A DNA stretch of 14,491 bases. It comes from a virus. Position 1 is the stretch's first letter; each line of letters starts with the position of its first letter. The stretch lies in the UHGV virus genome UHGV-0168752. One strand, 5' to 3'. The position numbers were made by a program, and so were the translations under genes. The notes beneath the pieces are model-generated. The model saw only the letters and a program-made list of their open reading frames with translations, searched no databases and had not been told where the DNA came from. Positions 1,288-11,434 of the stretch are shown one piece after another.

Positions 1288-1325
1288 CTCTAAGTCTCCA
1301 GTTAAGAGGTCATATTACCTGCTGG

Positions 1326-1553
1326 CTAGAGTGCCAACGTTAACCCGGTATGGGTTTGTACTGAACCAACACCATCGCGTGCTTTTGCTTTGGCGATGAG
1401 TTTGTCAATCACGCGCTGATGGCTACGAGTAATGACTTTACCTGGATAACCGATAATTAGCGCGTTCTCATCATTAATTACCGCCGAGAATTCATTATCG
1501 CCTGCGACGTAAGTAATCTTTTTGTCTTTGGTTACAATACGTTTGATTTCCAT
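1326..1553 (-). CDS. Small hypothetical protein (75 aa)
   Basis: ATG at 1553 with AAGGA 6 nt upstream; starts immediately after the stop of the preceding gene. Confidence 0.6.
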   Translation of the reverse strand: MEIKRIVTKDKKITYVAGDNEFSAVINDENALIIGYPGKVITRSHQRVIDKLIAKAKARDGVGSVQTHTGLTLAL

Positions 1554-1562
1554 TCATTGTCC

Positions 1563-6709: not shown

Positions 6710-7081
6710 TTAGAACCCCTCGAGAACAGCTTTCACAAATTCGTAAACCGTGCGGCGGTGTTCTTCAAGCGGATAACCAAACTTCGCATAATCGTCGTTC
6801 CAGACAATCGGATAAAGATCGCCTCCACAACTCAGATACCCTTTACGTAGCAGATAATAATCCAGCCCAACTCTAAAATTTAAAGACAGGCTGCCTTGTT
6901 TACTGCATACGTGCAACTGAATCGATTTCACACCGTCGTGTGTTGGCGTTTCAATCGTTTCTGCATACAATACATCCGAGCAACCTTCTAGTGTGCTAAC
7001 GACGTCTCTAAGGTTGTTATTGGCGTCGATGGTTGCGGCACGAAGCGCGTCGGTGTATTGCTGAAGTTCTCGATGGAACAT
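6710..7081 (-). CDS. Hypothetical protein (123 aa)
   Basis: ATG at 7081 with AGGAGA about 9 nt upstream; the start lies 94 nt inside the preceding CDS in another frame. Confidence 0.55.
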   Translation of the reverse strand: MFHRELQQYTDALRAATIDANNNLRDVVSTLEGCSDVLYAETIETPTHDGVKSIQLHVCSKQGSLSLNFRVGLDYYLLRKGYLSCGGDLYPIVWNDDYAKFGYPLEEHRRTVYEFVKAVLEGF

Positions 7082-7620
7082 CCTGCTAATCTCCTGTCTC
7101 TACCGTAAGGCAGAGGAAATGCTTTGTGTTCGAACTCTACCACAACATAAGCCGGGTAGAACAAAAGGTATTTATAAAACGTTGCCAACGTTACGTCTTT
7201 CGGGGTCGCCAGAAAATAATTAAGGTCGGGTGCGTCAGGAAATGCAAAATACAACCCTGTATAAATCTGACCGTTATACAACCCATTAAACGGTGTCACT
7301 ACACACTTCGGATGGGTGGGTTCGACGTGTAACCATCGACTACCGACGTGATAGACGCCCCGTAACGTGCCATTTCGGGTCTTCCCTAAATAACGACAAC
7401 GGATATTCTTTTCCCATGCGCTACGCTGGGTTGGAGAACCGCGCTGGACAAAACGACTTAACGCTTCGGGTGTAAAGTAATCAAAAATGGCTGTGGGTAA
7501 ATACCAACACGTTTTATCGATTCGTACCACTCTCCAGCCAGGACGAAAACCTACAGCGTAACGCTCTACACCAAAAGTATATCTAGACCCGTCGTGAAAC
7601 GGTACGAACCTTGCGCTCAT
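6988..7620 (-). CDS. Hypothetical protein (210 aa)
   Basis: ATG at 7620 with AAAGGAAAT upstream, 1 nt after the GNAT stop. Aromatic-rich; no recognisable motif. Confidence 0.65.
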   Translation of the reverse strand: MSARFVPFHDGSRYTFGVERYAVGFRPGWRVVRIDKTCWYLPTAIFDYFTPEALSRFVQRGSPTQRSAWEKNIRCRYLGKTRNGTLRGVYHVGSRWLHVEPTHPKCVVTPFNGLYNGQIYTGLYFAFPDAPDLNYFLATPKDVTLATFYKYLLFYPAYVVVEFEHKAFPLPYGRDRRLAGCSIENFSNTPTRFVPQPSTPITTLETSLAH

Positions 7621-7621
7621 T

Positions 7622-8092
7622 TTAGATTTCCTTTATCATTTCCCTGCACTCTGTACGAAAACCCATTTTCTCGTACACACTGATGGCTTTAATGTTATTG
7701 TCCAACACATCTAAAGACATCCAGCCACAACCCTTAGATTTTCCGTAGTCACGGACTTTATCCATAAGGGCACGACCGACCCCTTGTGAGCGCGCTTCCT
7801 CTAATACATAGTAATTCCCAATATAGACGAAGTTGTCTTTAGCACAGGAACCCAACGAGAACGTCATAAACCCTAAGAGAGTATCGTTATCGTCAACGGC
7901 GCACGCACACAGATAATCTTGTGGCCAAATCTCTTCCAGTCGTTCTATCGGGTTAAAGGTATCACGACCGGTGAGTTGGCTGATACGCACTTTCTCTTCA
8001 GCGAATAAGTGGTTATGTAAACGTAATACGTCAGCACCGTAACGTTTACCGTATTTACTGTCGGGTTTAAGGATAATAAAGACGCGCATCAT
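7622..8092 (-). CDS. GNAT-family N-acetyltransferase (156 aa)
   Basis: Motif A RSQGVGRALMDKV followed by AISVYEKMGF, typical GNAT core. Start overlaps the upstream stop (ATGA). Confidence 0.8.
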   Translation of the reverse strand: MMRVFIILKPDSKYGKRYGADVLRLHNHLFAEEKVRISQLTGRDTFNPIERLEEIWPQDYLCACAVDDNDTLLGFMTFSLGSCAKDNFVYIGNYYVLEEARSQGVGRALMDKVRDYGKSKGCGWMSLDVLDNNIKAISVYEKMGFRTECREMIKEI

Positions 8093-9222
8093 TTAACCTC
8101 GACTAATGATAAACGGCACCACTCCAGCAACCCTTCTGCAACGCGCACTAATGCGGTTGTGAAAGCGTCCTCTAAACGTAGTGCATTTTTATAACGCACC
8201 GTAGCATCACGTAACTCACGTCCTTCAAGCGATTTGAGTTCTTTGCGCATACGTTGAATTTCGTCATAAATTCCCGTATACCCAACACTGCGACGTTTTG
8301 TGCCACGCTGACGTAAGGCACGAATAATGCGATCTACGGCTTCTAACGCCTTACCAATCTCGTGTAAGTTCAACGATTTAATGGTATCTCCGTAATCACC
8401 GTCGCGCGCAATCGCCCATTCGATTTTACCATTCTGATGCTCAACCACAACCACGTTACCCGGCCACGGATACGCTTTTACAGATTTAAAAGGATCGATA
8501 ATGCCAAGTAAGCCTGCGCTTCGCTTAATTGCCCAGCTCGTAGAACGACCTACTCTTTCTAATCCGCTTTCGGTAACTTTCTTACTCTTACCGATAATCG
8601 TACGCGTTTTAACCGTGTACTCGTTAACCATCCCATCGATAGCGTTCAAGTTCTTACTGAAATCAATACACGCTTCAACATTCGGTTTGTCTTCTAAACA
8701 AACTTTTGTTGTCCAGCTTCCTGTTTCACAGTCACGTGGTTTTAACGTGTCTTTGTCACCAATTAAACTTAAGCGTGAATTTAACTTCTGTAGCTTGCGT
8801 TCTAACGACGCGGCTTTGGACGTTGCTTCTTTCAGTTCATTAATGACTTCTTTACCGGCAGCTTCCGCGAAATCGACAAAACGTAACGCCAGTTGCTTAG
8901 AATGCTTACCTGCAAACTTACCAGACGCTTTGGCTCCTGCCACCGCCGCCTTTCCAGCAACCCGACCAACACCCTTAACCGCTCTACCTGCTGTTCGTGC
9001 TACCGCTTTACCTACCCCTGCATAGGGTTCCGTGTCCGCAACGAATTGTGCACGATCCATCATCGCTGCGGATTCCTGTGCGACCTGAATATCGTCTAAT
9101 GCCCAGCGTTTTCGGATAGCAACAACTGCTGGATAGTTATCTTTAACGTTAAGCGATTCTAAAGCGACTAATCGATCGTAGTCATCGCAAAGGACTTCTA
9201 AATCGGAATCTAATGTTGACAT
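8089..9222 (-). CDS. Hypothetical protein (377 aa) with a Lys/Ala/Gly-rich low-complexity segment
   Basis: ATG at 9222 with AAAGGA upstream. Internal segment AGVGKAVARTAGRAVKGVGRVAGKAAVAGAKASGKFAGK; the remainder looks helical and charged. Confidence 0.7.
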   Translation of the reverse strand: MSTLDSDLEVLCDDYDRLVALESLNVKDNYPAVVAIRKRWALDDIQVAQESAAMMDRAQFVADTEPYAGVGKAVARTAGRAVKGVGRVAGKAAVAGAKASGKFAGKHSKQLALRFVDFAEAAGKEVINELKEATSKAASLERKLQKLNSRLSLIGDKDTLKPRDCETGSWTTKVCLEDKPNVEACIDFSKNLNAIDGMVNEYTVKTRTIIGKSKKVTESGLERVGRSTSWAIKRSAGLLGIIDPFKSVKAYPWPGNVVVVEHQNGKIEWAIARDGDYGDTIKSLNLHEIGKALEAVDRIIRALRQRGTKRRSVGYTGIYDEIQRMRKELKSLEGRELRDATVRYKNALRLEDAFTTALVRVAEGLLEWCRLSLVEVK

Positions 9223-9244
9223 CCTTTACCCCATTTAAGCTAAA

Positions 9245-9260
9245 GCGGGGAGAAGCCCGC
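9245..9260 (-). terminator. Weak hairpin, possible attenuator or leaky terminator
   Basis: 5-bp GC stem (9245-9249 and 9256-9260) with a poor T tract on the minus strand; lies between the SLOG-like gene and the 377-aa gene. Confidence 0.3.
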
Positions 9261-9271
9261 CCTGACTAACT

Positions 9272-9820
9272 TCATAATAAGCGCAGGTCTTCTAGCCACT
9301 TACTTGCATCGGTGGTGTGATAATAACAAGGAATATTCAACGTCTGCGCATAACGAACACCCATTGCCGTCCCACCTTTCGGATTTCCCTTTTTATCGTG
9401 CGGTGCGTAGTAATAGACAGCATCTACGTGATCGTCTAAAGTGTCGCCGGATACAATATTTAAGTTTCGTCCATGCAGCGCCCAAGCAATATCCGATAGT
9501 TTATCAGGATTAGGATGAAGTGAAGCCACAATCCCACGATAACGAATGTCTTGAGGAATAACACGAAACTCTACGTTTGGGTGTAACTTACGTAGCCACA
9601 ACTTACGTTCGTCAGGTAAATAGCAAATATGCGAAGCTGGTTCAGTACGCGCCAACATAAATTGTAATTGGTCTGGTCCTTTATAACAACCACCTGAACG
9701 TGTTTCGATAGTGTGTTGTTTATTACGAAGAATTTTAAACCCACGTTGCAACACGTCCAGCATTTCTTGCATTGTGTCTTCGGGAGTTTCTCGAGAACCG
9801 ATAATAGCAATTTTATACAT
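9272..9820 (-). CDS. SLOG/DprA(Smf)-like Rossmann-fold protein (182 aa)
   Basis: N-terminal IAIIGSRE, then SGGCYKGPD, and C-terminal GGTAMGVRYAQTLNIPCYY, resembling the GSR...SG.A.G.D...GGT pattern of DprA/LOG-type SLOG domains. GGAGGTGA upstream of the ATG. Confidence 0.5.
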   Translation of the reverse strand: MYKIAIIGSRETPEDTMQEMLDVLQRGFKILRNKQHTIETRSGGCYKGPDQLQFMLARTEPASHICYLPDERKLWLRKLHPNVEFRVIPQDIRYRGIVASLHPNPDKLSDIAWALHGRNLNIVSGDTLDDHVDAVYYYAPHDKKGNPKGGTAMGVRYAQTLNIPCYYHTTDASKWLEDLRLL

Positions 9821-9848
9821 TTGTCACCTCCATACTGAGGTCGTAAAG

Positions 9849-9894
9849 TGAAAAAAAAAATAAAATAGGAGAGAACCTCAAAAGGTTCTCTCCT
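9849..9894 (-). terminator. Rho-independent terminator
   Basis: 10-11-bp stem GGAGAGAACC/GGTTCTCTCC (9868-9877 and 9884-9893), 6-nt loop, followed on the minus strand by a T tract (plus-strand A run 9849-9866). Confidence 0.85.
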
Positions 9895-9907
9895 AACGTT
9901 ATCGTTA

Positions 9908-10543
9908 TCACTCTAATCCACTTAATACCACAGTTTCGAGTAACGCTTTACCCATCCATACATCCAACTCACCGTCTAAGTCCGCCAACGGGCGTTTATT
10001 CAGCTCATTGTTATAGTCGAGTCCATCGAGCGTTCTGTTTGTAATAATTTGGCCTAAATGTAGTGGCAGGATAAATCGATTTCTCGCACTATAAATAAAC
10101 GAATCACATTCGTAAACCACTGCGTACCGCTCGATATCTTCATCGTACTCAATATGGCATTGAGAACCGGTGTCCCACGCACGCGACAGAACCATACCAC
10201 GGTCCTGACACATCTTCTCCACCGCTACCTTCGCGGATGCACTCCACGTATCGTAGTTCTTTGGTTGACCGTTTTCGAAATCGAACCATTCCAGATACTT
10301 GGCAGGAATCTCAAGGAAGTCGTTTAACTGAAGCTTTGTGTAAGTTATCATTACCGCATCGTTAATGTCGTTACGGTTGGTTAACTTTACTTTATACCGG
10401 CCTTCCGGGGTGGGCGCACCTATTAAAGAAACATCCACTTTCTCAGCCGAAAGCTTTTTACGTACACTGTCACTGTTACAATAACTGACAAGATTGAGTA
10501 AGTTCTGTCTGTGGCCAACTTCGAAATCAATTACAAAAGACAT
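9908..10543 (-). CDS. Hypothetical protein (211 aa)
   Basis: ATG at 10543 with GGAG 7 nt upstream. No recognisable motif. Confidence 0.7.
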   Translation of the reverse strand: MSFVIDFEVGHRQNLLNLVSYCNSDSVRKKLSAEKVDVSLIGAPTPEGRYKVKLTNRNDINDAVMITYTKLQLNDFLEIPAKYLEWFDFENGQPKNYDTWSASAKVAVEKMCQDRGMVLSRAWDTGSQCHIEYDEDIERYAVVYECDSFIYSARNRFILPLHLGQIITNRTLDGLDYNNELNKRPLADLDGELDVWMGKALLETVVLSGLE

Positions 10544-10565
10544 ACAAACTCCGTGGGGTTAATCA

Positions 10566-10958
10566 CTAATACCCGTATAAGGGATACCGTGCAGTGATTT
10601 CATCACCCGCATAAAAGGTTAAACGTTGAATATTGATGTTTTTATTTGTGTAAGGTACAGTTTCTAACGTCACCTTCACGGTTGCAGAACAGCTTCCAGG
10701 ATCAACAAATTGGTACGTGCGCCGTTTGATGTTTACCAAATAGAAACCGCCTGCGGGACACAATTCGGTTTTACCGTAATTTACCACAGCAAATTCATCA
10801 TTCTGAACTGCGACGATAGGCTGGTCACCGGGTTTAAAAACCACAGGTTTATCGCCAGGTACGGTCGGTTCAAAACGACTAATGTCGTGCGGCTTAAATT
10901 CTGCCATTGCAGAAAATGAAAGTGACGTTAGAAATAGAGTAATAACAAAACGTTTCAT
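10566..10958 (-). CDS. Secreted/periplasmic small protein with N-terminal signal peptide (about 130 aa)
   Basis: True start is the ATG at 10958 overlapping the upstream TGA (TGATG); the track's 10961 start is a TTG. MKRFVITLFLTSLSFSAMA-EF looks like a Sec signal peptide with an AMA cleavage site. Confidence 0.7.
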   Translation of the reverse strand: MKRFVITLFLTSLSFSAMAEFKPHDISRFEPTVPGDKPVVFKPGDQPIVAVQNDEFAVVNYGKTELCPAGGFYLVNIKRRTYQFVDPGSCSATVKVTLETVPYTNKNINIQRLTFYAGDEITARYPLYGY

Positions 10959-11434
10959 CAATCTACCTCATCAAGATAATCACGCAGCCAAGGCATCGTT
11001 TCTAAACGAGGAATCATGTTCCGCGTATTCGGCGAAAACCATAACGCGTCGTGATATTTCTTTTTGAAACGTTCCCAGTTATACGAGAAAGGTTTGGGTG
11101 TAAAACCGCGTTCTTTTAACACCTCTTCCCAAACTAAGTCTTTAATGAAATCATCCACTAATAGTAGTACCAACACTTTCCACTTACTGCGACGAAAGTG
11201 TCGGGTAAAACATTTGCGGAGTTCTGAAAAGTCTTCTCGTTGACTGGAACGTACTGCTGGAATTGCTTTCTCTTTATACTGCGAACAAGGATTATGCTGT
11301 AATATCGTTACAGGAACACCCCGAACGCGACCTGTGCGTAGATCAAGCTCGTGAACGGGGATAACCTCAACACAACGTAATACTTTTGCTTTATTGCCTT
11401 CCAAGTACCGCGTCTCATACTCGACACGAATCAT
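10958..11434 (-). CDS. Hypothetical protein (158 aa)
   Basis: ATG at 11434. Basic, Trp-rich; no recognisable motif. Confidence 0.65.
   Translation of the reverse strand: MIRVEYETRYLEGNKAKVLRCVEVIPVHELDLRTGRVRGVPVTILQHNPCSQYKEKAIPAVRSSQREDFSELRKCFTRHFRRSKWKVLVLLLVDDFIKDLVWEEVLKERGFTPKPFSYNWERFKKKYHDALWFSPNTRNMIPRLETMPWLRDYLDEVD

Follow-up and report, generated by a model that had tools for sequence, protein, structure and literature searches.

A 14,491-nucleotide stretch of the virus genome UHGV-0168752 (taken at its full length and called the window here) encodes on its minus strand, at 9272..9820, a 182-residue protein with the glycine-rich motifs of the SLOG superfamily. The gene raises a question: does so short a relative of the recombination mediator DprA bind single-stranded DNA (ssDNA), as DprA does, or would it handle a small molecule, as other SLOG proteins do? 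One group's two computational papers give opposite roles. In the first, a DprA/Smf protein of group 1 and group 2 jumbo phages was proposed as a possible ssDNA binder that replaces UvsY (Iyer et al. 2021, PMC7824862); in the second, viral SLOG domains were taken mainly to process ADP-ribose-derived signals, and fusions to Macro, NADAR, helicase and helix-turn-helix (HTH) domains were cited (Iyer et al. 2022, PMC9503650).

Judged from profiles and alignments, the protein belongs to a distinct short branch of the SLOG superfamily, in the part that comprises DprA and YAcAr. It lies nearer to DprA over the full domain, yet it is not a canonical DprA. By alignment, it retains the residues with which the pocket of Helicobacter pylori DprA grips a flipped-out base and a phosphate of ssDNA. 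The reading that we prefer, with a probability of roughly 45%, is that it binds ssDNA through this pocket and serves phage recombination, replication or repair, or the protection of ssDNA. Its position between DprA and YAcAr, its DprA-type pocket and the mixture of DNA-type and ADP-ribose-type partners among its relatives sharpen the vague annotation of a large, widespread domain into a testable question, although for the window itself the outcome is ordinary.

The gene and its family

That the open reading frame (ORF) is a real gene, as the first-pass annotation had proposed, is beyond chance, because a 93%-identical homologue is encoded on a 191-kb contig, syntenic orthologues occur in Salmonella phage SPN3US (gp92) and Erwinia phage Asesino (gp108) at 57–62% identity, and the product matches PHROG 768 (E 3.1e-44, 151.8 bits; residues 1–172 against profile positions 3–170 of 191). 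The ATG start and its ribosome-binding site are listed in Table 1. The family is already known: its orthologues in RefSeq and the PHROGs entry carry the name “DprA-like DNA recombination-mediator protein”, and the gene in the window is an orthologue of this annotated gene in a new relative of the known SPN3US/Asesino-like jumbo phages. PHROG 768 was found in 603 phage records, and an exhaustive profile search returned 1734 representative clusters (50% identity) at E<=1e-3. In Salmonella phages SPFM1, 8, 9 and 10 (P0036-P0039, P0046), the profile matches fall in blocks of about 20 residues in reverse order, which is probably an artefact of the records, as would arise from reversed 60-nt lines.

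Table 1. Features of the DprA-like locus, in window coordinates
Feature	Coordinates	Strand	Basis or remark
Intrinsic-terminator-like hairpin (9895-9866) with T-run	9856..9895	minus	13-bp stem, 4-nt loop; terminator scan
TTTTCAC motif directly after the terminator T-run	9848..9854	minus	Motif search
Shine-Dalgarno sequence GGAGGT, 5 nt 5' of ATG	9826..9831	minus	Sequence reading
Protein-coding gene, 182 residues, short DprA-like SLOG-domain protein	9272..9820	minus	ORF, ATG start, homologues
“Weak hairpin”	9245..9260	minus	Chance level; not treated as a terminator

The predicted fold

The structure model of the protein has a mean confidence (predicted local distance difference test, pLDDT) of 93.7 and comprises a single domain, residues 2–181, with the three-layer alpha/beta Rossmannoid arrangement. 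All of its strong structural matches are SLOG proteins. In structural comparison, the model scored 12.6 against ShosA (8ZVA), 12.1 against H. pylori DprA (4LJK), 11.9 against both YpsA and TM1055, 11.8 against the Moco carrier protein and 11.2 against Streptococcus pneumoniae DprA; other LOG-type proteins gave 9.2–10.7, and the SLOG domain of ThsA with 3'cADPR (cADPR, cyclic ADP-ribose) gave 8.8. On the strength of the model, assignment to the SLOG superfamily is secure, as the first-pass annotation had claimed; a fold outside that superfamily, which it had named as the finding that would overturn its claim, did not emerge. Among viral models, a Foldseek search recovered members of the protein's own family at TM-scores of 0.57–0.80 and DUF2493/YAcAr proteins at about 0.43–0.51. 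SLOG members beyond DprA also score highly, and the clade must be read from sequence.

Affiliation with DprA

Two sets of sequences were used for this purpose: a broad family of 75 diverse stand-alone relatives and a jumbo-phage subfamily of 20 close relatives. Searched against the PDB, the 75-sequence profile found DprA chains only (E about 1e-4), and the 20-sequence profile found nothing real. A single-sequence search of the PDB yielded spurious matches only (E>0.01; ETV6 fusions, SEL1L); a match to nucleoside deoxyribosyltransferase stood at E 0.76. When the 75 relatives were searched individually in Pfam, 29 matched the DprA family PF02481 (E<=0.01, best 3.3e-8), four matched LDcluster4 and two YAcAr. 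PF02481 was also the sole precomputed Pfam family among the 120 matches listed in a further profile search. In profile-profile alignment with hhalign, the broad family matched five solved DprA/ShosA Rossmann domains at 95.2% (E 2.6e-8; 138 columns, residues 3–172), and an alignment to the single sequence of E. coli Smf (41%, E 2.8e-4) covers only the Rossmann domain of that protein, residues 108–252 of 374. DprA is thus the nearest sequence family, and the label “DprA-like” given in the first pass is borne out. The 75-sequence consensus reads GIGSRxTP ... LRSGxAxGAD ... EIYxPW ... HPA ... LHxRN..QILG ... GGT.TAV..A....IP..N.

The neighbouring YAcAr group (DUF2493, PF10686), of which Erwinia phage RAY gp153 is an example, likewise consists of small SLOG domains common in phages, and it shares the motifs GSR and SG.AW.GPD(D/Q) with the protein from the window. 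The N-terminal half of the subfamily that matches YAcAr carries the motif SGGC[W/Y]KGPDQ. Three of the 20 close relatives matched PF10686, weakly (best E 0.029). The broad family aligned with YAcAr at 55.7% over 52 columns, and DprA itself aligned with YAcAr at 92%. In YAcAr proteins only a short connection joins strand 3 to the RN helix, whereas the present family has a DprA-like insert there.

The likeness to DprA/Smf (PF02481; 3MAJ, 3UQZ, 4LJK/4LJR) resides in the core motifs GSR, SGG..G.D, Y-x-P, [F/L]xxRN and G-G-[S/T], and the differences are several. An insert of about 45 residues, which is specific to the family, contributes an extra helix and has no DprA counterpart, sits between strand 3 and the RN helix and includes a conserved H102-P103. 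H116 takes the place of the proline or leucine of FPxRN, and the second motif, SGGCYKGPD, has a one-residue insertion and a GPD. Family members occur in phages, plasmids and giant multidomain proteins, whereas DprA is a chromosomal competence gene. From these comparisons, the link to DprA is best described as homology, not orthology, and the proteins differ in domain architecture; clear orthology to a mediator of the DprA type, which the first-pass annotation had held would contradict it, was not found.

ShosA, the antitoxin of ShosTA (8ZVA, 9VZO), differs in having an N-terminal SAM domain and an additional C-terminal helix, both needed for its stability and dimerisation and both missing from the present protein. 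ShosA is also paired with the PRTase toxin ShosT; no toxin gene lies beside the phage gene, and PADLOC gave no ShosA match. The protein is set apart from the LOG/PpnN N-glycosidases (PF03641) and the ThsA sensor by the missing LOG motif, lower structural scores and zero matches in the profile searches.

Conservation of the DprA-type pocket residues

The first-pass annotation had listed GSR, SGG..G.D and GGT motifs. The outer two are present as given (G8-S9-R10 and G149-G150-T151); the spacing of the middle one was a residue short, the actual sequence being SGG-xxx-G-x-D (S42-G43-G44...G48-P49-D50). These elements correspond to the characteristic loops of a SLOG domain, namely a glycine-rich loop after strand 1, a GxD where helix 2 begins and a GG[T/S] loop after strand 4. 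Seven of their residues (G8, G43, G48, D50, G149, G150 and T151) are invariant in the 75 relatives.

According to Wang et al. (PMC3950713), DprA binds ssDNA through two motifs, G-S/T/A-R and F/L/Y-x-x-R-N/D. In their structure of H. pylori DprA with dT35, R52, Y108, F140, R143, N144 and G164 form a pocket for one base, and substitutions are costly: R52E, K137E and R143E lowered affinity by 170- to 315-fold, with losses of ~315-fold for R52E and ~173-fold for R143E (PMC3950713). ShosA uses the same arginines as DprA to bind ssDNA (PMC12961424). The protein from the window has both DprA-type motifs, GSR at 8–10 and L115-H116-G117-R118-N119, aligned to G50-R52 and F140-N144 of the H. pylori protein. 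In the hhalign alignment, with the H. pylori numbering checked against the PDB sequences, R10 is equivalent to R52, Y67 to Y108, L115 to F140, R118 to R143, N119 to N144, G150 to G164 and R156 to R170. Conservation is high: R118 is found in all 75 relatives, R10 in 74 and N119 in 73, and the position of Y67 is aromatic in 73.

A comparison with the functional residues of LOG enzymes and of DprA, which the first-pass annotation had proposed, gave the following result. The ssDNA-contact residues of H. pylori DprA are conserved, and the LOG catalytic motif PGGxGTxxE (as defined in PMC3950713) is absent; the corresponding stretch reads P147-K-G-G-T-A-M-G-V-R-Y-A and has no glutamate. Two histidines, H102 (68/75) and H116 (71/75), are nearly invariant among the relatives and have no counterpart in canonical DprA.

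Partners of the relatives

Many relatives do not stand alone. Among the best 144 representatives, 56 are longer than 250 residues, and proteins of 1–5 thousand residues combine the domain, by fusion, with RecD/PIF1-type SF1 helicases and with DUF7831. In one such protein (P0073) DUF7831, the DprA-like domain and the helicase are all fused, and in another (P0072) DUF7831 and the DprA-like domain only; on a 103-kb phage contig (L014 4602-7523), DUF7831, the DprA-like protein and a PIF1/RecD-like helicase are encoded by neighbouring separate genes. This pattern suggests that the three form a functional trio. Partners of the DNA type also occur on plasmids: on an Aromatoleum plasmid the DprA-like gene lies two genes 3' of rdgC, which a DUF1071 gene adjoins, and on plasmid pNL1 it lies near genes for an SRAP peptidase and SSB.

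Other partners point toward ADP-ribose. Two plasmid matches fall inside genes annotated as macro-domain proteins. For one of the two, from Erythrobacter, Pfam confirmed that a DprA-like part makes up the N-terminus and a Macro domain the C-terminus; the Macro-fused relative scores 15.6 bits against PF02481, for which the cut-off is 29.6. In three types of phage contig (~85–100 kb), the genes for NAPRTase, a Macro protein, glutathionylspermidine synthase and the DprA-like protein follow one another in that order. Pseudomonas phage Bitten has the same order from NAPRTase to the DprA-like gene, the gene in the Macro position being annotated only as a phosphatase. In T4-like phages of Klebsiella, Enterobacter, Serratia and Cronobacter, a family member lies directly 3' of rnlB; in KpV477 the rnlB stop and the start of the family member overlap by one base, and the neighbour was confirmed as RNA_ligase plus T4_Rnl2_C.

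Probable function and its alternatives

On the reading that we prefer, the gene product would be a minimal SLOG protein of the DprA branch, with one domain only, and it would bind ssDNA, or possibly any single-stranded nucleic acid, through the conserved pocket. Its place of action would be inside the phage nucleus, where it would help with replication or repair that depends on recombination, or would shield ssDNA. It may be the mediator for the phage's UvsX/RecA-like recombinase in a lineage that lacks UvsY, although the loading of UvsX is something that we infer. In Asesino, the named phage most closely related to this one, the UvsX (gp238) is nucleus-localised (PMC11724907). Because the SAM and winged-helix domains are missing, dimerisation or contact with a recombinase would need the core domain or the insert of about 45 residues, to which H102 and H116 belong.

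The “DprA” of phage RAY, gp153, is also nucleus-localised (PMC10299810). We considered this as direct support and rejected it: the SLOG part of gp153 (residues 160–229) is of the YAcAr/PF10686 type, and BLASTP found no similarity between gp153 and the protein from the window, so its localisation does not transfer. The gp153 gene (L020 8630-9511) lies three genes downstream of UvsX. The 150-residue N-terminal domain of gp153 has no assignment; a guess that it is NADAR-like was not confirmed by Pfam.

Several observations weigh against the ssDNA-binding reading. The R-N motif is present in YAcAr proteins too and is therefore not exclusive to ssDNA binders or to DprA. Searched alone, the protein had zero Pfam matches even at E<=10, leaving the PF02481 gathering threshold unreached, and zero matches in NCBIfam and PADLOC. 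The jumbo-phage subfamily aligned with DprA at only 10.3% (E 3e-3, 137 columns) and with five phage YAcAr sequences at 95.7%, the latter over the N-terminal 69 columns only. Foldseek placed DprA below TM1055, YpsA, the Moco carrier protein and LOG-like proteins, the top matches being SLOG proteins throughout. The protein is a single domain, without the SAM and winged-helix parts of the SAM-Rossmann-winged helix (DML1) architecture of DprA. Its gene is surrounded by head and virion genes, not by replication genes. The Macro fusion and the recurrent NAPRTase-Macro neighbourhood would fit a role in NAD or ADP-ribose metabolism, and in the literature we found no experiment on any PHROG-768 member.

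The pocket might instead bind or cleave a small molecule derived from NAD or ADP-ribose (a cADPR isomer, an ADP-ribose derivative or a modified nucleotide), in which case the protein would be a sponge or an N-glycosidase that blunts host immune signalling. A guess of this kind had been made in the first pass, with Thoeris and CBASS as the defences in view. The fold is common to LOG enzymes and to the cADPR-binding sensor ThsA, and such a role has been published as a proposal for viral SLOG domains (PMC9503650). The Macro-fused relative also fits it, as does the gene order running from NAPRTase through Macro and glutathionylspermidine synthase in the three contig types and, its phosphatase annotation aside, in Bitten. 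Moreover, the N-terminal half resembles phage YAcAr domains, and the family-specific, nearly invariant H102 and H116 lie beside the pocket motifs. Yet we consider this role rather unlikely, though still a serious rival: where LOG enzymes have their motif the protein reads PKGGTAMGVRY, without the glutamate, the residues that contact ssDNA are conserved, and fusions with helicases and with HTH domains occur just as often as the one with Macro. Furthermore, Macro, NADAR, Nudix and NAD-salvage genes are found neither in the window nor in the syntenic regions of SPN3US and Asesino.

Recognition of ssDNA could also serve counter-defence rather than recombination. DarT modifies the bases of ssDNA, and Macro (DarG2, AdfM) and NADAR (DarG1, AdfN) enzymes reverse the modification (PMC13309987); the protein might guide such removal of DarT-type ADP-ribose, or it might be a ShosA-like decoy that silences defences sensing ssDNA or RecA, such as ShosTA. 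Such a role would reconcile the DNA-type with the ADP-ribose-type partners; the family is fused to Macro domains and neighbours Macro genes, and on plasmids the gene is found among establishment-type genes such as SSB, SRAP, ImmA and SocA. The argument is one of context throughout, however. Asesino does encode a nuclear anti-DarT macro protein, gp217 (PMC13309987), but far from gp108, and the decoy variant has to contend with the missing SAM domain and C-terminal helix of ShosA and with PADLOC ShosA models that went unmatched. We therefore regard counter-defence as improbable. The same holds for its broader form, in which the PHROG-768 SLOG domain would be no recombination mediator at all but a portable module for recognising ssDNA bases, deployed by phages, plasmids and polyvalent proteins against defences that act on or sense ssDNA, for example by presenting DarT-ADP-ribosylated bases to Macro or NADAR enzymes or by replacing ShosA; if that were true, H102 and H116 would be there to recognise, or even to cleave, a modified base. 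A role in RNA repair, with the protein binding single strands as an accessory to RNA ligase 2, would account for the family members directly 3' of rnlB. That link is limited to one group of phages, in which the region from gene 24 to hoc/inh is known to be hypervariable; in Aeromonas phage CC2 a distance of 3 kb separates the two genes, and no RNA ligase is encoded in the window or in the SPN3US and Asesino regions examined; we thus hold this role to be very improbable.

Transcriptional setting

The gene had been described in the first pass as insulated by terminators, and this is correct on one side. The upstream hairpin has a predicted RNA folding energy of -28.9 kcal/mol (z = -4.74; 0 of 200 shuffles as stable), and SPN3US and Asesino have a terminator in the same intergenic position, with unrelated stem sequences. 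As it lies upstream of the DprA-like gene, this terminator ends the preceding gene (9908-10543) and is not the 3' end of the DprA-like gene's own transcript. The downstream hairpin, in contrast, is at chance level (fold z -0.02; 88 of 200 shuffles at least as good) and is not among the calls of the terminator scan, so terminators do not flank the gene on both sides. The next minus-strand terminator that the scan called past the gene is at 6082-6063, and the DprA-like gene probably heads a transcription unit that runs on into the genes for an internal head protein and a GNAT acetyltransferase. In the window as a whole there are 24 terminator-like sites, against 13.9 +/- 3.5 expected, and several strong ones are intergenic.

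The minus strand of the window has five copies of the motif TTTT[TC]AC (743, 4183, 5311, 9854 and 12631), each in an intergenic gap, although such gaps make up 1110 of the 14,491 bases. Four of these matches directly follow, on the 3' side, terminators called by the scan; the one at 743 follows a hairpin and T-run seen by eye only. The copy beside the DprA-like gene may be part of a phage promoter, in which case a new transcription unit would open with the DprA-like gene, and the set looks like recurrent terminator-plus-promoter modules of a phage that would use its own RNA polymerases. A scan of the window for sigma-70 promoters was uninformative (23 sites against 23.5 expected), as would be expected because the phage has RNA polymerases of its own.

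Genomic setting

The window contains 23 tightly packed minus-strand ORFs of at least 80 residues, the cut-off used, and is collinear with SPN3US (Seoulvirus) and Asesino (Erskinevirus), both of which are nucleus-forming jumbo phages. A megablast search with positions 8000-11000 gave zero matches among 50,697 phage records; at the DNA level the phage is new. Among annotated records the nearest is “plasmid unnamed1” of Enterobacter ludwigii (NZ_CP134650.1, 163204-179746; 222 kb in all), with 78.5% nucleotide identity over 12.3 kb. This record, which is typed as non-mobilizable, has the same gene order as the window and SPN3US and appears to be the genome of a jumbo phage that was submitted as a plasmid.

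Downstream of the DprA-like gene are the genes for a phiKZ-type internal head protein (8089-9222) and then the acetyltransferase; genes for a Dam methylase and a thymidylate kinase also lie downstream in the window and one for a RuvC-like resolvase 3.4 kb upstream, all of them neighbours of the DNA type. The virion proteomics of SPN3US mention the neighbouring gp94 and not gp92, and so provide no evidence that the protein is packaged. In SPN3US and Asesino, a gene of about 90 codons (gp93 and gp109, respectively) separates the DprA-like gene from the internal-head-protein gene; at its place the window has only a 49-bp spacer (9223-9271).

Two further observations concern the annotation of the window. 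The minus-strand ORFs at 6710-7081 and 6988-7620 share a 94-nt overlap, and their orthologues (SPN3US gp170/gp169, Asesino gp112/gp113) are likewise annotated with one; the overlap could be genuine, or it could reflect a frameshift site or a wrongly placed start codon. Finally, the apparent 275-bp gap at 1288-1562 (minus strand) holds an ORF of about 75 residues (ATGGAAATCAAACG...) preceded by GGACAATGA, which, although under the 80-residue cut-off, is probably a real small gene.

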